From NCBI GenBank assembly GCA_943355155.1, contig CALREJ010000001.1:2785-66784 (forward strand): DNA of 64,000 bases, read 5' to 3'. How positions within the stretch are numbered: position 1 is the stretch's first letter; every line of letters begins with the position of its first letter. This stretch comes from Candidatus Peribacteria bacterium (lineage in GTDB: Bacteria; Patescibacteriota; Gracilibacteria; Peribacterales; Peribacteraceae). Below, one piece after another: positions 1 through 54,287 of the stretch. A program made the position numbers and the translations under genes. Under the pieces are notes generated by a model. The model saw only the letters and a program-made list of their open reading frames with translations. It ran no database searches and was not told the origin of the DNA.

Positions 1-1137
1 TCCGCTATTTCAGAAAGCAACATCACGGATTCCTCTGTGACGATCTCGTGGTCGACGAATGAAAAAGGCGATACGCAAATCGATTACGGAGCAAACACAT
101 CGTATCTTCTTGGACCCACTACCCTCATCGATACGCCTGCCGTGAACATGACAAAAACGCACTCACAAGTAATCACGGGCTTAACTCCCGCAACGACGTA
201 CCAGTACAAAGTGAAGTCCAAAGATGCGGCCGGTAATGCCAGTGCCTGTAGCAATGATTCATTTGCCACTGCAGCCGATTCCACCGCACCGATTATCAAT
301 GACGCAAGCATCAGCGCATCACTCAATCACGCAGCGCACACAGCCACCATCACATGGACGACGAATGAAAATTCCTATTCGACCGTCGCCTATGATACGG
401 GCTATGGCACTACGGCAGATGCATCTCCGAACACTCTCACCAAAAATCACAGTGTGACACTCACAGGTCTTACGCCGAACTATCAGTACCATTATCAAGT
501 GATTTCTGCCGATGCCGCAGGGAATTCGGCGCCTTCCTCCGATAAAACATTTACGATCATCGATAATACCGCGCCACAACTTACCGCCGGACCAACCATC
601 GTATCCGTGACCGCTACCACAGCGAATATCACATGGTCTACGAATGAAAGTGCCACCACACAGGTCGATTATCGTCAAAATGGAACATTGTCATGGTCTC
701 AGTTGATTGATGGCACCCTTGTACAGGATCATCTTGCCGCTATCACCGGTATCGGTCAGGTCGGTCAGAATATGACGTACGATTATCGCATCAAGAGTAT
801 CGACGGAGGTGGAAATCCCTTCACCGATTCCATTCGCACCTTCTCGACAGATGGTGTTGCGCCGACGATCACCGTCCCACCCGCAGCATCTGTCATCACC
901 CAAACCACCGCGACGATCACATGGGATACCAATGAAAATGCGACATCTCTGGTCGAATATGGTCTCACAACCGGCTATGGATTATTCAGTACTCAAAATA
1001 TTGTGGTAACCACAAGCCACAACCGCGGCCTCACCGGCCTCACCGCAGGACAAACCTACAACTACCGCGTCATCAGTATCGATGCCGCAGGAAATCAGAC
1101 GGTCTCGGGGAATGGCACGTTTGCTACGTTGCCGTAG
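1..1137 (+). CDS. Surface/secreted protein fragment built of tandem fibronectin-III / purple-acid-phosphatase-N-like repeats (5' end lies outside the window)
   Basis: Frame 1 is open from nt 1; the listed M at 37 is an internal GTG. Stop TAG at 1135-1137. About four ~95-aa repeats share the pattern TI(T/S)W(T/S)TNE..(S/T)..V.Y, then H...(I/L)TGL.P.T.Y.Y(K/Q/R)V.S.DAAGN. Confidence 0.8.
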   Translation, partial: SAISESNITDSSVTISWSTNEKGDTQIDYGANTSYLLGPTTLIDTPAVNMTKTHSQVITGLTPATTYQYKVKSKDAAGNASACSNDSFATAADSTAPIINDASISASLNHAAHTATITWTTNENSYSTVAYDTGYGTTADASPNTLTKNHSVTLTGLTPNYQYHYQVISADAAGNSAPSSDKTFTIIDNTAPQLTAGPTIVSVTATTANITWSTNESATTQVDYRQNGTLSWSQLIDGTLVQDHLAAITGIGQVGQNMTYDYRIKSIDGGGNPFTDSIRTFSTDGVAPTITVPPAASVITQTTATITWDTNENATSLVEYGLTTGYGLFSTQNIVVTTSHNRGLTGLTAGQTYNYRVISIDAAGNQTVSGNGTFATLP

Positions 1138-1202
1138 AAATATAAAACGCCGCACCCACCACTTCGGCAAGCTCGCTTCTGATGCGACGTTTTAACAAAA
1201 CT

Positions 1203-1228
1203 CCAGTAGCACCCGTTCCCGGGTGCGG
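1203..1228. repeat. Short hairpin-forming intergenic repeat, copy 1 (ccagtagcacccgttcccgggtgcgg)
   Basis: 26 nt, identical except one base to 7792-7817. Contains stem gcaccc/gggtgc. Lies between the convergent ends of the Fn3-repeat gene and the 1247-1672 ORF. Confidence 0.7.
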
Positions 1229-1246
1229 CGTGATTGTTCTTTTCAA

Positions 1247-1672
1247 TTAACTCAGCGCCATCCTCACAAAGTACAAACTCTTTCCATCATTCGTATCGAG
1301 GATGAATTTTGCGTCGAGGGTGGTGAGCTGGATGATTGTTTGGCACATGCGAAGCAGCATCCGTGGGGGGATTCCGATGCCGGATTCGAGACATGCAGCG
1401 CAGAGCCCTGCAGCATCTTTCGAACGCAAATACGCATCGCCGACATTATCAATTATTTTGCAGAGCGATTCCTGCACCTCCAGCACGAAATGCTCGACGT
1501 AATTTTCGAGTTGCTCGACAGGCAAGTCCTGTACTTCGGGAAGTGCCTCGATGATGTCGAGGTCTTTATGAATCGCATGAGCGATACAGGTTTCAATGGA
1601 CATAAAATTTTTGGGGTGTGTGTTTGTGTCGAGAAATCCACTCAGTATAGCAAAAATCCGCATTTTTTTCAA
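1247..1672 (-). CDS. Hypothetical protein (141 aa)
   Basis: ATG start (MKKMRIF...). The convergent intergenic space holds the hairpin repeat, and 64 nt of divergent spacer precede the next gene. A + strand ORF (1223-1729) lies in exact antisense codon register, so strand choice is uncertain. Confidence 0.45.
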   Translation of the reverse strand: MKKMRIFAILSGFLDTNTHPKNFMSIETCIAHAIHKDLDIIEALPEVQDLPVEQLENYVEHFVLEVQESLCKIIDNVGDAYLRSKDAAGLCAACLESGIGIPPRMLLRMCQTIIQLTTLDAKFILDTNDGKSLYFVRMALS

Positions 1673-1736
1673 GGGCTTCAGACTGGCACAGTGACGTGCG
1701 ACTCGCTCGTCTCTACGGAAGCTGTATAGTCCACAT

Positions 1737-2252
1737 ATGCGTTACTCGATTGTTTCCATTTTGGTCGCCTTTCTCTTCATTCCTCTCGCTTTCGCCCACA
1801 GTGACCTACCGTCTTTTGAAAAAACGGTTGATGGATATTTGATCGATGTTGGCTACAGCATTGAGCATCCCGAACCAAAGCAGGACGTTCGCTTCACGTT
1901 CGATCTGTACAGCGGTACCGGCGATGCAATCGCTTTTGCACCATTCAAGGCTGTCACTTTTACCGTGTCACATGAAGGAGAAACGGTCTTTACGAAAACT
2001 CTGCAAAATGTTGCTCCGAATGTTCCCGCACTTACGTATGCCTTTCCGGAGAGTGACACATACGATATCGGCATTTCCTACGAACGTGCAGATGGAAAAA
2101 GTGAGGCGACCTTTCAGTTGCCGGTTGGCGCGACTTCCGCACACGGACATGTCGATAGCGTCTGGGATGAGCGTATGCATTATATTCTCGGCACAGGGCT
2201 CTTCCTTTTCGCCGCCTTTTGTATTGTCGTGATGATTCGTCAGCGAGTCTGA
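1737..2252 (+). CDS. Hypothetical exported protein with N-terminal signal peptide and C-terminal TM anchor
   Basis: N-terminus MRYSIVSILVAFLFIPLAFAHS is signal-like. C-terminus ILGTGLFLFAAFCIVVMIRQR is a hydrophobic helix plus basic tail. No family recognised. Confidence 0.7.
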   Translation: MRYSIVSILVAFLFIPLAFAHSDLPSFEKTVDGYLIDVGYSIEHPEPKQDVRFTFDLYSGTGDAIAFAPFKAVTFTVSHEGETVFTKTLQNVAPNVPALTYAFPESDTYDIGISYERADGKSEATFQLPVGATSAHGHVDSVWDERMHYILGTGLFLFAAFCIVVMIRQRV

Positions 2253-2257
2253 TCCTT

Positions 2258-2629
2258 TTAGCACGTCATGCATGCACACACTCGGTCGACAATTCCGTCG
2301 AGCTTCATTTCGTGTTTGATCAGACATTCCTTCACGCCGTATTTCTGGCATCGCGCGTAGTTTTCTTCTGTGAGTGAATTGGTGAGCACGACAACCGGAA
2401 TCGACAGATTATGTGACTGCATAAATTCGAGGACAGAAAATCCGTCACCTTGGGGCATCCGAAGATCGAGTACCACAACGTCAGGGCTTTTTTCCTCAAT
2501 CTGTGAAATCGCCGTCGTGCCATTGTTCGCACTAATGACGGTGAGGTTTCGTTCCGACTGTTCGCATCCCAAATGAAACAGCTGCGTGATGAGTGTGTCG
2601 TCGTCTGCGATCAGAATGGTTTTGGACAT
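2258..2629 (-). CDS. Stand-alone response-regulator receiver protein (CheY-like, 123 aa)
   Basis: MSKTILIADDD...VVVLDLRMPQGDGFSVLEF...PVVVLT gives the acidic pocket and phospho-acceptor Asp pattern. ATG at 2627-2629. The 288-aa form in the ORF track would overlap the opposite-strand membrane gene and is Lys/Arg-rich junk. Confidence 0.85.
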   Translation of the reverse strand: MSKTILIADDDTLITQLFHLGCEQSERNLTVISANNGTTAISQIEEKSPDVVVLDLRMPQGDGFSVLEFMQSHNLSIPVVVLTNSLTEENYARCQKYGVKECLIKHEMKLDGIVDRVCACMTC

Positions 2630-2704
2630 GGATGTGTGGGGAATGTTTCTGATCATTATAGCATGCATCACGTATTTTCGCCAGAGATACGCTAGTATGT
2701 TTCT

Positions 2705-4300
2705 GTGATTTTCCCGTTCAAGAAGCGCGCATTTCTTTTTCCTTTCACTGCGTCTGCTGTTTTTCTCAGCTTTCTTGTTTTGGGATTTTTTGTGCACGGA
2801 GATTTCGGAGTATCCGAAGACGAACCCGCGATGATGCGGTTTGGAAACGAAACGATTTTTCATTTTCTCGGTGTTGCGCCCGAGCCCGCAACAGTCGACT
2901 GGAAATTTCATAGTCCGCTGGTTTCTGTTGTAATGGTGATTGTGCAAATTCTTTCGCATGCAGTGAATGGATCGGACATTTGGCCTGTGCGTCACGGTGT
3001 CACATTTTTGTTTTTCTTTTTCACCGTTCTGACATTCTTCTTCATCGCACGACGAAGATATCACCGGTGGATGGCACTCATCGGCAGCATCTTCTTTATC
3101 CTCAGTCCCCGCGTCTTTGCTCACGGCATGTATAACCCGAAGGACATTCCTGCGCTGTTTTTTTTCACACTCGGCGTTCTGACATTCCTTCGTCTCCGCG
3201 AAAAATGGAGCATGTCCAGATTGGCCTTACATGCACTCGCTTGTGCGTTCTTACTCAGTTTGCGCACATTTGGACTTCTCCTCATTGTCTTCACGCTGTG
3301 GTCGATTCTGGCAGATTGTAGCAATGGGAAAATCTTGCAAAAGAAGATCTTATCACGCGCAGGATTATTTCTCACATGGCTGATCGTGCTCACGATTGCT
3401 GTGTGGCCGAGACTGTGGACGCACTCACTCGCGCATTTTCTTGAAGCTTTGCACAATAATACCTCTCGCGGTGGGGGAGGGCTGTATCTTGGGTCAATCT
3501 ATACAAGTACGCCGTGGCATTACGTTCCGGTCTGGATATTCATCACGACGCCGCTTCTTTATTCAGTGTCTGCGCTGATCGGAGCGATCGCAATTATTCG
3601 CTCCACAATTCTCAAACCTTTCGATACTCTCAGAAAATTTCCACATGAGTTCCTCTTTTTTCTGTGGTTCATGGCACCGATCATTGCCGTGCCGATTTTC
3701 CACATCGGACTTTTTAATGAATGGCGACACGTGCTCTTTATCTATCCTGCGTTACTTCTGCTCTCGCTCGAAGGAATCACTGTGCTCATGGAGGCATTAC
3801 AAGAAGTGAAGATTCCAAAGCGCATCGTGAACATTGTTCTCGTGTGGCTTATCGCAGCGTCCACACTCTCAACGGGATTCTGGATGCTCCGCAATCATCC
3901 GATGGAATATATGTATTTCAGCGTGCCGACGAGCTTGGTCAAGGGTCGATTTGAAATGGACTATTGGCATCTGTCGTATCGTCCTGCGCTCGAAGAATTG
4001 GTGAAGTTGCAACCAACCGGTTCTATCAAAGTCTACGTCAGCGCAAATGTCGCGCTTGGCTCTGCGATGTCACTTTCGCGCGCAGACAGAGAACGAATAG
4101 AGTTTGTAAATGCGGACATCGCGGACTATATCGTCGATGATTTTTATACGAATAATTATCAGCCTCGCATTCCTCTCGATAAAGCTTTGCGCGTCATCAG
4201 TGTCGATCATATTCCGGTTGCTGCGATTTACCGTGGTCCCGATACGGCGCATATTTTTCCGGAGTTTGGGGAGAGTGCGGTGCTGCCGAGGGATCGGTGA
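2705..4300 (+). CDS. Polytopic membrane protein, probably a GT-C (family 39/83, ArnT/PMT-like) glycosyltransferase
   Basis: 531 aa with about 10 or more hydrophobic segments. An acidic DE motif sits in the first loop (GVSEDEP), and a soluble C-terminal domain follows. Assignment rests on architecture only. Confidence 0.6.
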   Translation: MIFPFKKRAFLFPFTASAVFLSFLVLGFFVHGDFGVSEDEPAMMRFGNETIFHFLGVAPEPATVDWKFHSPLVSVVMVIVQILSHAVNGSDIWPVRHGVTFLFFFFTVLTFFFIARRRYHRWMALIGSIFFILSPRVFAHGMYNPKDIPALFFFTLGVLTFLRLREKWSMSRLALHALACAFLLSLRTFGLLLIVFTLWSILADCSNGKILQKKILSRAGLFLTWLIVLTIAVWPRLWTHSLAHFLEALHNNTSRGGGGLYLGSIYTSTPWHYVPVWIFITTPLLYSVSALIGAIAIIRSTILKPFDTLRKFPHEFLFFLWFMAPIIAVPIFHIGLFNEWRHVLFIYPALLLLSLEGITVLMEALQEVKIPKRIVNIVLVWLIAASTLSTGFWMLRNHPMEYMYFSVPTSLVKGRFEMDYWHLSYRPALEELVKLQPTGSIKVYVSANVALGSAMSLSRADRERIEFVNADIADYIVDDFYTNNYQPRIPLDKALRVISVDHIPVAAIYRGPDTAHIFPEFGESAVLPRDR

Positions 4301-13522: not shown

Positions 13523-13754
13523 ATATGTGGGGGAAGGGATAAGTTCACTCTCTAGGACGCAGTGAGGGCGGATGTCTTACAGTGATTTTCTTCTATCGTA
13601 TGTGGGTGGCATGTGGGGCGATACGGTTTTGATGCTGAAAAATTTGCATTCTCGGTCTGTTATGCTAACATATAAGTGGAATTGTTCTCGATCCGAACGG
13701 TGACGTTTATCGCCGCCTTCTCCACAAAGGGATAGGATCGGGAATTTCTGTTTG

Positions 13755-41060: not shown

Positions 41061-41561
41061 ATGAGACGACTATGTATTTTTCTTTCTGCGGTATCACTTC
41101 TCTGTCTCACCGCGTGCGACCGGACACCGGTCGAGCCGCCGTCGATTGATTTTATTGGGATTGCGACGGGCAGTTTGACGACGGATTTGAACGCACTCAA
41201 GTTTCGAAACAGTTTTAAGAAAGAGGAGACGCAGCTCGTTGGTATTGTTGGATTTAGTCACATTGATGCAGGAAGCACCGCGCAGGCGACGTGGTATTCG
41301 CCGGATGAGCGTACACCGCCAATCGGTCGTTCGTCTGCGATCACCCAACCCGGTGCGCGCACGGCGCGGTTTAGCTTTGCGTCGGGGGATGGGCCATGGA
41401 CATCGAACAGTTATAAATTGCGCGTGGATATCACGACAGGGCATGGGATTCGTAAGCAGACCGCAACGGGAAGTTTGTTTTTCTATATCGACAAAAGCGA
41501 TAGCGAAATTCGCGCGTACCAAGAAGAATATCGTGCGTGGCTGAAAGATATGAAGAAGTGA
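41061..41561 (+). CDS. Lipoprotein (166 aa), function unknown
   Basis: Signal plus lipobox LLCLTAC. Its stop codon directly abuts the stop of the giant convergent gene (tga|tca). Confidence 0.7.
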   Translation: MRRLCIFLSAVSLLCLTACDRTPVEPPSIDFIGIATGSLTTDLNALKFRNSFKKEETQLVGIVGFSHIDAGSTAQATWYSPDERTPPIGRSSAITQPGARTARFSFASGDGPWTSNSYKLRVDITTGHGIRKQTATGSLFFYIDKSDSEIRAYQEEYRAWLKDMKK

Positions 41562-44500
41562 TCAGACCTTTGTGTTCACAGTGTAGATGCGCTCAGTCGG
41601 ATTTTTTCTGCGGTTGCTCCAGATCATCATTGCCCAGCCGATGTTACTGAGAGCAAGCAGTCCGATGATGATCCAGCCGTAGACAGGGATGACCATGCCA
41701 CTCGTTTGGCGTGAAGAGTCTGCGACGACGAGTTGAATGAGAGGAAGTGCAACATCGAGTTGCTTCTGTTCATCGAGGGACATTGTTGCCGGAGGCTCGA
41801 TGATGAAGTCGCGCTTTTGGATTGTTCCGTCTTTGACGTGGATTTCGATCTGGTGCTTGCCGGTTTCGACATCGTGGAAGGTCGCGATACCGTCGGTGTT
41901 TGTCACTGCGACTTTCGGGGTGGAGAAAAGCACAACGGGAGTGTTTGCGAATGGATTTCCGATAGAATCGAGCACGCTCATGCTGAGGCTTGCAATGAGA
42001 ACCTGACCATTAAGCTTTCGCATACTTGTCTTATATTTGAGCGGCGGAGGTATAGTCTGTGTTGCGATTTGCGGTGTCTGCGTCGAAGTGAACCTCGATG
42101 CAATCGTTGTGACAACGTTGCTCGTGTCGGAAGCAATGTTCCCCGCAATCGTTTGTGTCTCGATGATCGCGCGTGCGATCTGGAGGCCTGTCCATTCCAT
42201 GCCGTTTTGCGCGACTCCTCCCGCTACTCCTGCTGCGGATTTGACCTGCAGCGCAACGAGTGCCGGCGTATCAGACACATTGCGTCCGACGAGTGCGATT
42301 GCATTGGTTACAGTATCTTCCGCACGGTTTCCGGTGCGTGCGACGGTCGACTGCGTATCCAAGGCGCGCAGAGCAATTTGGCCTCCGCCGAGTGTAGTGC
42401 GGATGATCTGAGATTGCAGAGAGTCAGATGCATTCTTTAGACCTGTGCCGGTTGTTGCGACGATGCTCGAACCTGCGCGGATCGTTTGCAGTGCGGCGCT
42501 GCCGACATTTTTCACAGCACTGCTTGTTGTTGTAGCGACGAGTGTGACGGTGTCACGCGCTGTGCGGCCGATTCCTGTGCCAACGTTTGCCGTGAAGCTT
42601 GCGACCGCGCGCACCGAGTTTGATGCGACTTTTCCGACAGCACCCAGTTCCTGCATGCGGAGGAGGGCGATGTCACCCGTGCGAATAACTGCATCCGATG
42701 TATTTCCTATGATCTGCAGTGTGCCATTTCCGAGTCGGCTGATTTGGAGGAACGCGAGTGAACCTGCATCACGCACTCCGCCTGTGACGCCGGCAATAAC
42801 GGAGCGTGTGTTATCTACAGTAGTATTGAATATCTGCTGTGTTCCGTTTCCGACGTATGCGACTGCGGTACCAATTGATGTTGCAGTGCGGCCTGCGAAT
42901 CCGGAGACGGACTCCACAGTTCTGAGTGCAATCGCGCGCGTTTCGCCGGACGCAGTATCGATGAAGGTGTTGACTCCTCTGCCGACACTCACAAACGTAT
43001 CAGCCACAATCTTCGCGCCACGACCCGCTGCACTCATCGCGTTTCCGAGATACTTCGCAGCATTCGATGCGGGAATGGCTGCGTAATCGACAGCGGTTCC
43101 GAACCGAATAGAAATCTTCTTCGCGAGATCCTGAGTCTTGGCTTCTTTTTCTATGACTGCTTCGACTTGTTTCACAGCAGGTGCTTTTGGAAGAGTCAGG
43201 CGTTCGATCGTGGGGATCACAGATTTTTGGCCAGTCGAACTATTCGATCCGTCCGTTCTTTCGACAATCGGTTCGGCAGTGGCGACAATTGGCCGTCCGC
43301 GACGTGCGCCGGGGGTTTGTTCGATGTCATTGCTTGTTGATTCGGTGCTTGTAGCAGTGGATGAGCTCGATGAACTTTCTGTGGAAGTGAGTGTGTAGCC
43401 GAAGTATTCGTGTTTGATCTGTCCTCCCGTGCCAAAGCTCACAGAGCGGCTGTTACTGGTGGTTGTCGTGTAGCCGCTCGGAGGTTCCGCAGCGACAATG
43501 AAGTTGCCGTTTGCGGTCGGGAGATTGCTGAAGAGATATGTACCGCTTGCGTTGCTTCTGGTTGTCTGGCTCACGGTTCCGCCTGTCCCCGATGTGCCTG
43601 TGAGAGTCACGGTTGAACCCGAGAATGCCGTTTCGCCTTCGTCTTTGATACCGTTGCTGTTTGCTTCTAGGAAGACAGAACCGCTGAGGGTATTCACACG
43701 TACGTATCCGAAGTTGATATTAATGAGTCCACCAGTTCCAAGCACGTTGCTGCCGGAACTATTGAAGCGCGTGCGCAGGTATCCCGTTGGTGCAGTGTTG
43801 CTGTTCACCGTCACCGTGTAGCCTGCAGAGCTACTGACAAGTGTTCCGGAGAAGAAGAATTGTCCTGTGCTCGCAGTCGTTGTACTGCGGTTAAGGGTCA
43901 TGCCTGTTCCCGTGTTTCCCGTGAGAGCAACGCTGACACCACTGAGGCCTGTGATTTCGTCACCGTCTTTGGTGCCGTCGCCGTCGCTGTCACTCCAAAG
44001 GAGACCCTTCATCGTTCCTGTGTTCGGGAATCCCCAGCGGACGTTATTGCTGCTGTTCACACAACCCGTCAGACAATCGATCGATGTACTGTTCAGGTTA
44101 TTGCTATCTTTGACATCAACGTATTCTACGGATCGCGTGCCGCTCGGGTCGATCTTCCATTGCGTTCCCATTTGGCTCGAACGCAAGCTGAGAAGATTGG
44201 CTGTCAGTCCATTCAATGTCAGCGTGTTTGTCACCGTTTGCGTCGTCGTCGCAGCGAAGGTCAGGGTTCTCGCAGCTGTCACGCTCTTTGTCAGGTTGTA
44301 GAAGGTGGTGCTTCCACTCATTGTTTGATCTTTTCCTGAGAGCACTACGGTTCCTGCGCCTGCGCTGAAGCCTGCATTCACGGCACTCGTCTTCAGCCAG
44401 CTGCCCGACAAGGTGATGCGTTGCGCACTATTCACCGTCAGTGTTCCACCGCTGATCGTGAGTGACCCAGACAGGTTCAGTTGTCCGGTCGGGAGATTGA

Positions 44501-47500
44501 AGACAGTTGATCCCGTCGATCCGATGACGACGTTTTGGTACGGAGCATTCGGCAGTGTCACAGTTCCGCCCGCTTTGTCGTACCATGTGACGGCATTTCT
44601 GTGCGCGAAGCGACTGCCTGTCACAGTGATTGTTTCATCGCCGTCCATGCGAAGTGTTGTGCCTGTGCCTTGTGTCAGGTTGCCCGTAACACTCAGGGCA
44701 TTGCCGTTCAAGTTCAGTATTCCGCCCGTCATATTCAGGCTTTGGTTTGCGGTGCCGAGTGTGAGTGCGCCGGAGAGAGTGACCATTCCCGCGGGTTTCG
44801 CGATCGTCCAGTTGCCGCTTGTGAAACTTCCATTGCCGGACCAGTATTGCTGCGTGCCCGTGCCACTGAGCTGCAGTGCACTCGTGCTGTAGTTATTGGC
44901 ATTATGCAATTTGATGTCTCCGCGTGCATCGATGGTGCCGCCGTAGAATCCACCGCTTGATCCGACATCAAACAAATGTTGTGTCGTCAGTTTTTGTCCG
45001 GTTGCGATGTTTATAAATCCACTGTCATTAAAGTACATGTCGTAGAACACGGGATTTGCGGAGAGGTTCATCGTACTTGTTGATGTATTGAATGGTTTCA
45101 AGAGGAATGATCCGTTGTTATGGTTGAATGTTCCACCGGTGATATTGATCTGAATCGGCACAGCACCACGGGTGTCGAGAGTCGTTGTGCCGGAAGGTGC
45201 CGTGAATGTGCCGCCTTCCATAGAGAATTTTGGCCCCCATGTCACTCCGCTTTCATTATCAAAGGTCAGATCACCCGTACTTCCCGTGATCGTACCGCTC
45301 ATCAAATCTACGCCGCTTCCAAAGGTGACTGTTCCGCTCGCAGGCAGTGTGACTGTGGTTGCGGCAGCATTGAGTACCATACCCGGCATGCCACTCGCAC
45401 CCAGACTGATCGATTGGTTATTGGAGGAAATGTAGAGCGTTCCATATCCCAGTGAGAATGTAGCTTTATGAGTCATGGTTCCCTGCACGTTCACTCTGCC
45501 ATAGAGGAGCGAGCCTTTGTTCAGTGCCAGTGCGTTCGCTACCGAGATCGTTCCGGCAACAGCGTTCACATTTCCGCCGCTCATCGTGTAGTTATACAGA
45601 GTGAGTCCATTAGGCGCGACGAAGGTTTGTGTGTAGGTCGTGGAGAGAAGTTTCGTGATCACCGTACCGTTGTTATGGCTGAAAGTATTCGCAATGGTGA
45701 CAGTGTTGTTTCCCGTCGTCGCGACGTTTCCGAGCACGAGACCCGACGACGTAGAGACGAAAGTGCCTCCTTTCAATGTAAGATCGGCAGCCTTACCCGT
45801 GACACCACTCAGATAAATCGTTTCGCTTCCACCGGTGAATGTTCCTCCACTTTGGCTGAGCCCAGCTGTCACGGTGATCTTATTCGCACCTTGTGTCATT
45901 GTTCCGTTAATCAGCAGAGAAGCAGGGGAGAATGTGTCGGTGAGGTTCAGGGTCGTACCGCTCCAGAGCCAGACTTTTGCAGAAGACGTGCTCATGGCAT
46001 CTGCAGTACCGGCCGCAAGAATTTGATTGGGGTCACTCATGGAGCCGACTGCGATGCGCAGCACTCTGTTTGTCAGTGGCGACGAGACGTTGAACCCTGA
46101 TCCATATTTCAGAATCACGTTGTTTTTCACAAGGATGACACCGGTCATGTTCGCACCTGTGGTGCCGCCGGTTCCCATCGTGATGGTGTTTGCCGCACCG
46201 CTTGTCAGCGCGTCACCCACGAATGACATGATTGTCCCACCGGTGATGGACATATTGCTGAATGTAAATTGTCCACCTGCGTCCGTCGTTGTGGTATTCG
46301 CCGTATCTGATCCGTTTATTCTGAGTCTGATCGCAGCGCTGGGTCCTTCCGGAATGGTCATTGCTGCGTCGCGGTAAAACTTTCCGGTGATCGAGTAGAT
46401 GGCAGTGTTCGTCAATGTCCAGTTTGTGTTATTCAGACTGTCCGTACATCCGACTGTACAGTCGATTGCCGTTGCGTTCGTATTGTTACTGTCCTTCACA
46501 TCGACATATTGTATTGACCTGCTTCCACTCGGATTGATTTTCCATTGAGTTCCCGTCTGACTCGAGCGCAGACTGAGCTGATTGCTCGATGCGCCATTCA
46601 GTGTCAGCGCATTCGTCACGGTCTGTGTTGTCGTCGCTGCGAAGGTCAGTGTGCGTGCAGCAGTGACGGACTTTGTGAGGTTATAGAATGTCGTACTGCC
46701 GCTGAGTGTCTGGTCTCTGCCGGAGAGGAGCACCGTTCCCGTTCCTGCTGTAAATATTGCATTCGCAGCAGTGGTCTTGAGCCAACTTCCCGACAGGTTC
46801 ACGCGTTGTGCATTCGTCGTTGCGAGTGTTCCTCCGGAAATGGTGAGTGATCCGGAGAGGTTCAATTGTCCCGTCGGCAAGCGGAAGACGGTTGATCCTG
46901 TCGAACCGATGATGACGTTTTGGTACGGAAGGTTTGGCAATGCGACAGTTGATGCGCTCGGGCTGTCGTACCAGATGGTCGATTTGCTCTGACCGAGGAT
47001 CGTCGTGTAGGTCAGTGTTTCCGTGCCGCGCCAACGCATGGTTGTGCCCGTACCGACGATGAGAGTTTTACTAACCGTCAGATTTCTTCCGTTGATGTTC
47101 AATGTGCCACCCGTCAGGTTCAGGTTTCCTTTTGTGAAGTTTAACGATGCGCCTGATAGTGTAACGATGCCTGCGGACTTTCCGATCGTGGTGCCCGAGG
47201 CTGCGAATGTTCCACCCGATTGCGTCAGGGTCTGGTTCGCGCTGCCTGTAAACATCACTTTCACGTTGGGGTTACCAAATGTCACACCGCCGGTTGTACC
47301 TCCCACTTTGACGAGTGTCATGGCACCCTGAAGGTTGATGCTCGCGCGGTTGGCGGTTGTGGCGCTGTATGTTCTGGTGTTGGTGCCGCTCGTCTTATTG
47401 ACTGTCAAGGCATTTGCCACTGTCATACTGCCAGACAACGTCGTTGTCGTAGCGGTGCTATCGACAGAATTGAATGTGAGATTGTAGAAGATTGTGCTGG

Positions 47501-50500
47501 GAGTGATGATTGTCTGTGCAATCGCAGTTGCGGGAGTAAAGCTCACCGTTCCGCTGTTATGCGTGAACGTTCCCGCAGTGAGGAAGGTGCTGGTGGCCGT
47601 ACCACTCATCAGGAATCCGCTGCTCGTGCTGGTGAATGTACCGGCTCGTTGACTGAAGGTCGTACTGACGTTGATCGTCTGCGATCCGCCTGTGAACGTA
47701 CCACCCGATTGTGTGAGGTTTGTGAGAATCATTTTGTGTGCTCCCTGCGTCATATTTCCATTGATGTGCGCGTACGTTGCGGTCAGGGTTCCGCCTAGCT
47801 GCAACGTGGAACCCGTCCAGACGTACAGCTTCTTTCCTGTGGCAATGGTGATGTCGTCGGAACTGTTTGTGTAGATCGCCGTCATATCTCCGTATCCTCT
47901 GTTCTTTGCGATTCTAAGCATCGAGCTTGTGACAGGAGAACTGATATTGAATCCGCTGCCATACTTCACGATCAAATTATTTTTGATCAGCGTCATGCCG
48001 GTCATGTTTGCGCCGACTGACGATGTGCCGCTGCCATACGAAACCGTGACTGCCTTGTTCGTTGTGCTTCCTGCAATGTACAAGCCAATCACCGATCCGC
48101 CGGTGAGACTGAGGTTACTGATCGTATACTGTCCGCCGTTATCGACCGCGCCCGTTCCTGCCACCACTCCGCCGTTGATCGACACAGCGACGCTCACGCC
48201 CGTGAGAGGCACTGTGCCGCCTGTGTTACTGTAGACAGTTCCAACGATGGTTTTGCCGATCCCCCAGTTCGTGTTGTTTCCGCTACTCACCGTGAGTGCC
48301 ATCGGGCTGCTTGTGTTGTTGCTGTCCTTTACATCGAGGTAATTCATCGTGCGTACGCCGCTGGCATTGATGATCCACTGTGTTCCCGTTTGACTCGATC
48401 GCAGATTCAGATTGTTCGTGGACGTTCCCTGAAGCGTGAGGAGCGTTGTGATTGATTGCGTCGTCGTTGCGGCGAACGTGAGTGTCTGAGATTTACTTCC
48501 GGTGACGGTTTTTGTCAGTTTGTTAAACGTGTTGCTGCCGCTCATCGTTTGGTCACTGCCGCTGAGCAAGACGGTTCCAGTTCCGGCAGTAAATGTTGCC
48601 GCCGTTGTCTTCAACCAGCTACCCGAAAGGTTGAGGACTTGTCCGCCGTTCACATTCAACGTTCCTCCACTGATCGTGAGTGATCCGGAAAGGTTCAGTT
48701 GTCCCACCGGCAATTTATAGATCGCCGAACCCGATGATCCGATGACGACGTTTTGATACGGAACTGCCGGCAATGTCACAGTTGTTCCTGCTTTGTCATA
48801 CCATGTCGTGGAATTCCTATGCGCAAATCTGCGGCCACTCACGCTGATCGTTTGATTTCCATCTAGCCTCAATGTTGTTCCTGTTCCCACAACGAAGTTT
48901 CTGCCGGTCGTGAGTCTGTTTCCATCGAGGTTCAGGGTCCCTCCGCTCAGGATCAAATCCTGCGCAGTTCCACGGAGGAGCAGTCCTGTTCCTGCAGTCA
49001 CGACACCTGCAGTTTTATTGATCACGACGCTTCCCGAGAATGTTCCTTTCGAAGGAGAGAATGACTGACTATTTGTTCCTGTCATCAGCAATGTCACGTT
49101 ATCACCAAAACCGGATTTGGCCTGCAGTGCGGAATAGTCACCTTGCAGAGTGATAGTGATTGGACTTGTTGCCGACCATCCGCGCGTTGCAGTCGGTGAT
49201 AAATTCGCCGGCAGTGTCAGACTATGTGTGACCGTGAAACTGTCTGCAAGCGTAGTGGTGCTGACGGCAGTTGCGTTATGATTCAGCTGAACGTCGTAGA
49301 ATGTTGCTCCTGCCGTCGTGATAGTGAAGGCGGAATTTCCTGTTTGTACTACATCCACTAAACCGCTGTTATGTGTGAACGTAGCGTTATTTGTGCGTGT
49401 GAAATCACCGTAGATTTGCAGTGTGGTGGCAGGAGCCAAGAACGTACCACCTTTTTGACTGAAGGTGGTCGCAGTCATTGCTGGTGTATCCGTTGCATTC
49501 ATCGTGCCCCCGCTTTGCGTAAACGTCGTGACTACTATCCCATTCCCCGGATCCGTTACGATCAGATTTCCATTGACATGCAGGAAGTCGCTGTTCAGAT
49601 CGACAGCGGAATTGAGGTCTAGTGTTGATCCGCTCCAGATGAAGATTCTTTTACCGGTGTTCGCTACAATACCGGTACTGTCCGCGTAGAAAATGGCATT
49701 TATATCACTGATATCCGCATTATCTGCTGTGTTCAAGATTGTCGCAGTCACAGGCGAGCTGACATTGAATCCGCTTCCATATTTTATAATCAGGTTATTC
49801 TTGATCAGTGTCATGCCTGTCATGTTTGCGCCGACGGTCGACGTGCCGCTACCATTCGAGACGGTCACTGCATTGTGTGATGCTGAACCCGAAATATAGA
49901 GCGCAACGACTGTGCCGCCCGTGAAGTTTTGGGCGGTGATTGTGTATTCTCCTCCTGTGTCGGTGGCATCTGTACCGCTCACGGCTCCACCATTGAGTGA
50001 CACGCCCACCGTGACACCGCTGATTGGCACTGTTCCACCCGTATCACTGTAGACTTTTCCGGTGATAGATGTACTTGCTGTCGAGAATGTCCAGTTCGTG
50101 TTATTCAAGCTGTTTGTACATCCTGTCGTGCAGCTGATCGCTGTGCCATGGATATTATTGCTGTCTTTGACATCGACGTATTGGATCGATCGACTTCCAC
50201 TCGGATCAATTTTCCACTTCGTACCTGTTTGACTCGAACGCAGACTGAGGAGATTCCCGAGCGTGCCGTTGAGTGTCAGCGTGTTGGTGACTGTCTGTGT
50301 CGTCGTCGCGGCAAAAGTGAGTGTTCTCGCAGCCGTCACGGATTTCGTGAGGTTATAGAACGTCGTGCTGCCGCTCAGTGTCTGGTCTCTTCCGGACAGC
50401 AACACTGTTCCCGTTCCTGCGGTGAAGATTGCATTGGCTGCAGTCGTTTTGAGCCAGCTGCCGGACAAGTTGATACGCTGCGCATTCGTCGTAGCCAGCG

Positions 50501-54287: not shown

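Follow-up and report, generated by a model that had tools for sequence, protein, structure and literature searches.

The locus and its genes

The window analyzed in this work, a stretch of 64,000 nucleotides of the Candidatus Peribacteria contig CALREJ010000001.1, harbors a single reading frame for a giant surface protein of 4241 residues (hereafter, the giant), flanked by an upstream partner gene and by a convergent lipoprotein gene (Table 1). The gene for this 4,241-residue cell-surface fibre is real and belongs to a lineage-specific, uncharacterised family of giant proteins. In line with an earlier note on this DNA, which had described a 4241-aa open frame from the sequence alone, the frame begins with ATG and runs without an internal stop over 12.7 kb. 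Three further elements had not been recognized in that note, namely a recurrent lineage-specific leader module, the nature of the partner as a split-off part of the giant, and the lipoprotein as a conserved companion.

The source genome (G000; 1.18 Mb, 66 contigs, 88.6% complete) belongs to the Peribacteraceae, within the candidate phyla radiation (CPR). In a collection of 5.8 billion proteins, the giant forms a singleton cluster for which no strain variants were found, and its best relatives there, 38–45% identical, are named only as 'LamG-like...', 'SdrD B-like domain-containing' or 'hypothetical'. NCBIfam gave no match for the giant, and SdrD_B (PF17210), in two stretches, was the only Pfam family found above threshold.

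Table 1. Features of the giant gene and its neighbours, in window coordinates.
Feature	Residues	Position	Strand	Evidence or remark
Giant surface-protein gene	1-4241	41562..54287	-	Stop-free frame; relatives in 25/61 related genomes
Cytoplasmic N-tail with 9 Lys/Arg (predicted); start ATG overlaps partner stop (ATGA)	1-56	54120..54287	-	Overlap kept in congener G003
Transmembrane helix 1	57-80	54048..54119	-	Hydropathy; conserved in G003, P0016, P0019
Transmembrane helix 2, first arm of hairpin module	88-115	53943..54026	-	Hydropathy, alignment, profile
Predicted cytoplasmic loop, motif W.(N)...E.L..VE..HP(Y)(M/L)P plus basic residues	116-144	53856..53942	-	E, HP invariant
Transmembrane helix 3/signal-peptide-like, ending SAQASA; predicted signal peptidase I site after A167 or A169	145-171	53775..53855	-	
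Conserved Y.E.R.WQIAND element opening the mature body	172-196	53700..53774	-	Follows partner-like domain in fused relatives
Super-repeat 1, holding nested tandem repeats	184-1394	50106..53738	-	Chunked self-BLAST
Nested 195-aa tandem repeats in super-repeat 1	460-1140	50868-52910	-	
Super-repeat 2	1395-2003	48279..50105	-	Chunked self-BLAST
Super-repeat 3: CnaB/transthyretin-like sandwich, then beta-solenoid body, YVDVKDSNN and CxxxC cap at end (fold classes predicted)	2004-2618	46434..48278	-	AlphaFold2, Foldseek
Super-repeat 4, middle part divergent	2619-3420	44028..46433	-	Chunked self-BLAST
Two SdrD_B (CnaB-type) domains	3421-3636	43380..44027	-	PF17210, E 2.5e-18, 66.8 bits vs cut-off 29.7
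Ser/Thr-rich, charged linker	3637-3703	43179..43379	-	Sequence; disordered in AlphaFold2
Ala-rich amphipathic alpha-helical stalk, apolipoprotein-like (predicted)	3704-4066	42090..43178	-	3.6-residue periodicity, AlphaFold2, relatives
Membrane-proximal transthyretin/carboxypeptidase-regulatory-like beta-sandwich	4084-4190	41718..42038	-	AlphaFold2 pLDDT about 90, Foldseek, invariant motif
C-terminal transmembrane helix and basic cytoplasmic tail SNRRKN..	4199-4223, 4224-4241	41565..41693	-	Hydropathy, conservation
Partner gene: N-terminal transmembrane/signal segment, acidic Ser-rich spacer, two homologous beta-domain blocks	1-1140	54284..57706	-	
Lipoprotein gene (lipobox LTAC), convergent, conserved companion of C-terminal module	1-166	41061..41561	+	Adjacent in 10 loci; co-occurrence

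Repeat architecture and integrity of the gene

Self-comparison of the giant by chunked self-BLAST delimited the four super-repeats that the earlier note had claimed, at about the boundaries listed in Table 1. The three nested repeats of ~193 aa claimed for the first of them were also recovered; their period is about 195 aa (585 nt), and the three good copies are accompanied by a degenerate fourth.

Within the gene, the longest exact DNA repeat measures 26 nt and repeat copies are at most 81% identical at the DNA level, so that a collapse of the repeats in the assembly is unlikely. The two closest copies, at window positions 46434–47015 and 50106–50687 (aa 2425–2618 and 1201–1394), share 88% identity as protein and 78% as DNA, with different codons at 84 of their 171 identical residues. 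The repeat copies are therefore under purifying selection.

Folds of the body, the stalk and the membrane-proximal sandwich

AlphaFold2 (AF2) modelling by segment, which the earlier note had proposed, was applied to super-repeat 3 and to the last 592 residues; it returned confident sandwiches and a low-confidence helical region. For super-repeat 3, the input was a 49-row alignment of the giant's own copies and relatives, and the resulting model (predicted local distance difference test [pLDDT] 87.9, predicted template modelling score 0.77) was all-beta, with 54% strand, 2% helix and strands every 7–10 residues. In Foldseek searches, its first ~100 residues matched CnaB, UafA-B and transthyretin-type sandwiches with a probability of 0.96–0.99, while the rest showed a weak likeness to the Hbp passenger, the EtpA secretion domain, dextranase and phage parallel-beta-helix/tailspike proteins (best BFVD E 6.6e-5 with TM-scores of 0.14–0.24; PDB E > 0.05). 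None of the sequence searches of the PDB, run with super-repeat 3 and its profile as well as with the partner and with the lipoprotein, yielded a useful match. The models thus support a sandwich plus beta-solenoid organization of the super-repeats as a fold class, not as homology. Of the beta-sandwich followed by a beta-helix-like block that had been proposed for each super-repeat, the sandwich (probability up to 0.99 in super-repeat 3) and the YVDVKDSNN end hold, and the matches to beta-helices are weak.

The two SdrD-B/Cna-B-like modules and the Ser/Thr linker read from the sequence earlier were both recovered, the former by Pfam and the latter from its composition. By contrast, the Ala/Gly/Thr/Val-rich region that follows, earlier read as degenerate short repeats, is not a beta region built of such repeats. 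It is better described as a predicted amphipathic helical stalk, because its hydrophobicity has a periodicity of 3.6 residues (power 85, against 74 at the 95th percentile of shuffles), AF2 places six long helices in it (pLDDT 35–55, i.e., at low confidence), every relative has an Ala-rich equivalent, and the Apolipoprotein Pfam family matches two of the 27 relatives.

In the model of the last 592 residues, AF2 was confident only for the C-terminal sandwich (pLDDT about 90) and the transmembrane (TM) helix. The final beta-sandwich expected from the sequence is thus borne out as a fold class, with a Foldseek probability of 1.0 to the transthyretin-like domain of carboxypeptidase D/N (TM-score 0.71 to 5aq0_A). 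In addition, the CarboxypepD_reg Pfam profile is significant in 13 of 27 relatives and stays below threshold in the giant itself (E 0.062).

The C-terminal anchor module defines the family

The family shares a C-terminal module made up of the Ala-rich amphipathic helical stalk, the transthyretin-like sandwich, a TM helix and a basic tail. Its signature is an invariant motif in the sandwich, TPV.LFS.PK..T...G..TFH.V..G.H, after which EPP...LP... (EPP, LP(V)IQV), the TM helix and the basic tail follow; the giant has this entire arrangement. The module is conserved in 28 species-level loci, each with the TM helix and the basic tail, and the earlier description of a C-terminal TM helix with an RRKN tail is accordingly correct for the giant and extends to its 27 relatives. 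These loci stem almost exclusively from metagenome-assembled genomes of Candidatus Peribacteria, Peribacteraceae and Peregrinibacteria.

Eight of 61 related genomes carry the C-terminal module. Super-repeat modules (sandwich and solenoid ending in ..V.V.DSNN), searched with super-repeat 3 as the query, are present in 25 of the 61, with E values down to 6.5e-75 and typically many matches within each open frame. The sub-domains of the super-repeats occur in varying combinations. Frames with such matches measure 4,321 (G028), 5,145 (G018), 5,170 (G033), 6,536 (G003), 7,295 (G023), 10,041 (G058) and 17,510 aa (G029). The last of these is a single frame at about 90.7–143.1 kb of contig C1 of G029 (its ends lie in loci L029, L030 and L021) and takes up about 3.8% of a ~1.4-Mb genome; partner-like domains lie at its N-terminal end, and its C-terminal module is that of the giant. 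Within the source genus, the N-terminal and the C-terminal module occur in only two of six congeners, G000 and G003.

No LPXTG-type motif precedes the C-terminal TM helix, where the giant reads ..VVADSSRQTSGM.. and Gram_pos_anchor does not match. The H(G/A)(A/S)AP-like stretch that relatives have at this place, itself variable, is not kept in the giant. The source genome encodes two sortases; sortase anchoring of the giant was nevertheless rejected for want of an LPXTG-like motif.

A conserved convergent lipoprotein

The lipoprotein is a conserved companion of the giant. Its homologues were found convergent and just downstream of the giant in 10 fetched loci, and among the 61 relatives its domain occurs in five of the eight genomes with the C-terminal module as against none of the 53 without it. 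In relatives, the lipoprotein (P0003) corresponds to the C-terminal part of longer open frames of 334–410 aa, and no Pfam or PDB relative of it was found.

The earlier note had pointed out that the stop codons of the two genes abut without room for a terminator. The abutment itself is correct (..AAGTGA/TCAGAC..), but not its significance: the distance varies from -242 to +1078 nt in relatives and terminator-like sites occur at chance level. A functional meaning of the abutting stops was therefore rejected; that they leave no space for a terminator is incidental.

A recurrent three-helix leader at the N-terminus

Hydropathy confirmed the three hydrophobic N-terminal segments of the earlier note, the last ending in SAQASA: aa 57–80, 88–115 and 146–163 (SAQASA at aa 164–169), in addition to the C-terminal segment. 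Lys/Arg counts amount to nine in the N-tail, one in the 81–87 loop, five in the 116–144 loop and five in the C-tail. By the positive-inside rule this would fit a topology with both termini inside, in which the N-tail and the 116–144 loop are cytoplasmic and about 4,030 aa lie outside, close to the ~4000 extracytoplasmic residues predicted before. In G003, a relative from the same genus, the N-terminal region is 53% identical over aa 43–196 and has Leu in place of Met140. An internal start at Met140 is therefore unlikely, since helices 1 and 2 are conserved as protein.

Together with the loop between them, helices 2 and 3 make up a hairpin module with the alignment consensus W.G..N....E.L..VE..HP(Y/R)LP, in which E and HP are invariant. 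A profile of the hairpin matched in 50 of 151 related genomes, all of one family. Among 1.84 billion representative proteins it gave 86 matches, always near the N-terminus; one of them, the top match P0004, was discarded as a spurious repetitive sequence. As judged from these matches, the three-helix leader is a rare, recurrent, lineage-specific module.

The hairpin has three classes of carrier. The first comprises PrsW-family intramembrane metalloproteases (PF13367) of 520–600 aa in many genera, and the second polytopic proteins of ~200 aa, including one in the source genome. The third consists of 22 large proteins of 750–4,700 aa. Close homologues of the giant (P0016, P0019, P0022 and P0029) belong here, as does a family without any other TM segment, in which FG-GAP-like repeats occur together with a C-terminal half of SLH-like type (FG-GAP and SLH were assigned by eye). 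Large carriers have the extra helix 1 ahead of the hairpin, which is needed because the loop must stay cytoplasmic with the N-terminus starting inside.

The second hairpin copy of the source genome lies in a 205-aa polytopic frame 4.5 kb past the window end (L059:5206-6768; G000:C1:71206-72768). Ten nucleotides further on begins the gene for an N-anchored protein of 311 aa that contains GLUG motifs (PF07581, E 8e-13).

PrsW occurs throughout the family as a single-copy gene, but in the source genus (G000:C23, G003:C17) it has no hairpin. Conversely, Pfam found no PF13367 protease domain in the giant, which shares with PrsW the N-terminal hairpin alone. In six other genera, large hairpin-led proteins lie within 5–25 kb of a hairpin-bearing PrsW: at G065:C2 72–96 kb (L054, L055), G075:C7 112–160 kb (L056, L057), G017:C1 118–128 kb (L058), G086:C3 (L060, L061), G078:C9 (L062) and G012:C17 (L063). 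Inspection by eye suggests FG-GAP-like repeats in these clustered proteins and, for their C-terminal half, which ends in ..WWERV, a likeness to SLH. Just upstream of the PrsW gene of the source genome, a 392-aa frame (L064:250-1425, on G000:C23) contains an extremely His/Asp/Glu-rich tract (..HEEHEEDQHEHHSHEAHDDHEKHKDHDHDHEHPHEDHKH..) and ends in a TM helix with an RRRKRR tail.

The partner is a split-off part of the giant

The comparison of the gene pair in relatives, another check put forward in the earlier note, showed that the partner corresponds to the N-terminal part of the giant in other genera. Partner-like domains were found, by tblastn of the partner against the fetched loci, inside the giant's own frame, near its N-terminus, in G018, G023, G028, G029, G033, G075 and L083, and they are likewise fused within the giant in P0033 and P0060. 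Only G000 and G003 have the partner as a gene of its own, and both keep the gene pair and the ATGA overlap of start and stop.

The fused order is exemplified by P0033, where the leader is followed by a Ser-rich spacer, a partner-like block (36% identical to partner aa 633–1122), ..Y.E.R.WQIAND, the super-repeats, SdrD_B and the C-terminal module. In G000 and G003, what separates the partner-like block from Y.E.R.WQIAND is exactly a stop codon, a start codon and the three-helix leader, so that the two polypeptides represent parts of a single ancestral protein. From this sequence relationship, partner and giant most likely assemble at the surface.

The partner also has an internal duplication, its aa ~213–460 resembling aa ~874–1121. 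A sub-threshold match to MG2 (alpha-2-macroglobulin-type) was seen at its aa 918–958.

Genomic surroundings

The neighbouring genes are ordinary bacterial ones (BipA, PurF-like, Ogt, PolX, P-type ATPase and DipZ-like). An Rfam DUF3800-IX RNA match adjoins a tRNA-Leu at window positions 13684–13749 of the plus strand, with 46 bits against a gathering score of 36.8.

Export, anchoring and possible function

The reading that we favor, with a probability of roughly 0.6, is that of a fibre coupled to its partner, exported by helix 3 and anchored at the C-terminus. Translation of the giant would be coupled, through the ATGA overlap, to that of the partner gene upstream. Its N-tail would stay cytoplasmic and helices 1 and 2 would insert as a hairpin, while helix 3, with PKKRH before it and AQASA after it, would initiate the passage of about 4,030 residues through the Sec pathway. 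Cleavage of helix 3 by the one type I signal peptidase (SPase I) of the genome would then leave a three-helix fragment of roughly 170 aa in the membrane. The mature protein would be held by the C-terminal TM helix and basic tail, a topology predicted from sequence with an anchor that all relatives conserve. From the membrane outward, the fibre would present the transthyretin-like sandwich, a ~360-aa amphipathic helical stalk, the Ser/Thr spacer, two SdrD_B domains and four super-repeats, each of these a putative beta-solenoid opened by a CnaB-like sandwich. By rough estimate, its length may be of the order of 60–100 nm. The mature N-terminus probably binds the 1,140-aa partner, given that the two are one polypeptide in other genera (a Rosetta-stone argument).

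A role of the giant in attachment to a host cell or surface seems likely by analogy, because of its likeness to beta-helical and CnaB-type adhesins and the inferred symbiotic lifestyle.

The earlier note had the protein tethered at both ends unless its N-terminal part was cleaved. The C-terminal anchor stands, and for the N-terminal one the evidence leans towards cleavage. Helix 3 has the n/h/c organization of a signal peptide (PKKRH / ILVALLLGLSLPFFIWSV / SAQASA), and the source genome encodes a single SPase I. Of the 22 large carriers, 20 have an [AVS]xA(non-P) site where helix 3 ends. Among sequences of 150–400 aa, which include several fragments from large carriers, the count is 16 of 37, and the site is missing from the core small polytopic family (ALQT..G..PF), which has the same hairpin. 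Cleavage by SPase I, which would leave only the C-terminal anchor, thus appears somewhat likelier than double anchoring.

Several points weigh against the favored reading. Cleavage was judged by the simple motif rule given above and not by a trained predictor; the 18-residue hydrophobic core of helix 3 is long enough for a stable anchor; and the FG-GAP carriers conserve the residues after the putative site (MSFTL), which is atypical of plain SPase sites. Furthermore, the Ser-rich spacers of fused relatives come directly after the leader, as would be expected if the N-terminus stayed anchored. Outside the question of cleavage, the model of the helical stalk is of low confidence and the adhesion function rests on analogy.

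The best surviving alternative, which we regard as the less probable but a serious one, is that helix 3 stays uncleaved and that the three-helix N-module and the C-terminal helix together hold a 4,030-aa ectodomain loop. The topology with both termini inside is consistent with it, as is the core of helix 3. The FG-GAP/SLH-like carriers have no other TM segment, so that the module could be their anchor, and the fused proteins P0033 and P0060 combine spacers after the leader with a C-terminal anchor. What speaks against this arrangement is, besides the distribution of the [AVS]xA site and the presence of SPase I, the distance of about 12 residues from helix 3 to the first folded element, so short that the body, if not cut free, would be held fast beneath the cell wall.

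A further, rather doubtful proposal, compatible with either anchoring topology, takes the hairpin (TM, E..HP.LP loop, TM) as a lineage-specific recognition or assembly element that would unite the giants, the small polytopic protein and, in many genera, PrsW in a common membrane complex or processing route. The same hairpin heads the PrsW-family proteases of many genera, the ~200-aa polytopic proteins (with the source-genome copy directly upstream of the GLUG-motif exoprotein) and the 22 large exported proteins, and about nine of 14 large carriers have a hairpin-bearing PrsW gene no more than 25 kb away (G012, G017, G065, G075, G078 and G086). In the source genus, however, PrsW is without the hairpin and its gene is not linked to that of the giant, and the clustering could stem from local duplication or recombination of the module and not from function. 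It is conceivable, at similarly low odds, that Peribacteraceae have an N-terminal sorting or processing system of their own, linked to PrsW, of which the hairpin is the mark. Giant and other large surface proteins would be recognized in the membrane by the hairpin that they have in common with PrsW and the small polytopic protein, for release, positioning or quality control. If true, such a system would parallel, at the N-terminus, the sortase/LPXTG or exosortase/PEP-CTERM pairs.

A role of the giant as a structural coat or as a scaffold of the envelope, S-layer-like and perhaps glycosylated, instead of as an adhesin is a reading that we consider unlikely. Thr, Ser and Asn make up 35% of its residues, the ectodomain has 112 N-x-S/T sequons as against 90 ± 8 in shuffles, and a heavy investment of Peribacteria in surface polymers has been stressed (Anantharaman et al. 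2016, PMC4736985). Nevertheless, a patchy occurrence within the genus (two of six congeners) fits an accessory, fast-evolving interaction protein better, and a single-copy, membrane-anchored fibre of 4,241 aa is an unlikely lattice former. The sequon excess is mild, the maximum of 500 shuffles being 115, and might reflect glycosylation or merely the composition of the repeats.

Finally, that the repeat region is misassembled or the gene a decaying pseudogene is scarcely credible: the number of contigs, the incompleteness of the assembly and the strong repetitiveness of the protein would favor it, but the frame is free of stops, the DNA copies are divergent and under purifying selection, and independent assemblies show the same architecture.

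Significance and comparison with known systems

Ultra-small bacteria of the candidate phyla are thought to live attached to other cells and, to our knowledge, the molecules that mediate this contact are almost unknown outside Saccharibacteria. Here, 1.4% of a 1.18-Mb genome is devoted to one surface fibre, and the 17,510-aa version takes an even larger share of its genome. The conserved ends of the family (leader, C-terminal anchor module and lipoprotein companion) offer targets for antibodies, for labelling in cryo-electron tomography and for the comparative genomics of host contact. The leader, common to a PrsW-type protease, could reveal how monoderm-like CPR cells route or process over-long Sec substrates, and the split and fused pairs constitute a natural experiment on the breakup of giant proteins into subunits.

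The giant is analogous to other very large exported proteins of adhesin type with a long conserved N-terminal extension ahead of a signal-peptide-like helix, namely autotransporters with an extended signal peptide region (ESPR) and the KxYKxGKxW/accessory Sec serine-rich adhesins. The leader of the giant has no sequence relationship to either (no Pfam match). In the giant, the extension consists of two TM helices and a conserved cytoplasmic loop, and it is also found on a protease and on small membrane proteins. With the PrsW-family metalloproteases (PF13367), the giant has in common the N-terminal TM-loop-TM hairpin with E..HP.LP; it differs from them in lacking the protease domain, and the PrsW of its own genome is without the hairpin.

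Among adhesins, the giant resembles the Sdr/Cna-type of Gram-positive bacteria (microbial surface components recognizing adhesive matrix molecules) in its SdrD_B/CnaB domains, its CnaB-like sandwiches and its C-terminal hydrophobic segment with basic tail. It differs in that Pfam and inspection of the sequence revealed no LPXTG, Gram_pos_anchor or YSIRK, and in that its bulk is predicted to be beta-solenoid and not Ig-like. The long predicted beta-solenoid rod recalls the diderm beta-helical adhesins (the Hbp autotransporter passenger and the TpsA proteins FHA and EtpA), with a weak Foldseek likeness. However, neither Pfam nor NCBIfam matched a beta-barrel translocator or a two-partner secretion domain in the giant, whose host is a CPR bacterium with sortases and TM-helix anchoring. 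Similarly, these databases gave no match to the RTX nonapeptide repeats or C-terminal type 1 secretion signal of RTX/LapA-type proteins, and the C-terminus is a TM anchor.

One precedent comes from the same lineage. Candidatus Peribacter riflensis encodes likewise very large (1,219–3,861 aa), predicted extracellular and strain-variable proteins, for which attachment has been proposed (Anantharaman et al. 2016, PeerJ, PMC4736985). That description is in general terms, without a three-helix leader, a C-terminal module, a split-gene arrangement or a lipoprotein companion. The giant is thus a variant of the known giant adhesin-like surface proteins and of the large extracellular proteins of Peribacteria, and what is unusual about it is the rare leader together with the split-gene arrangement.

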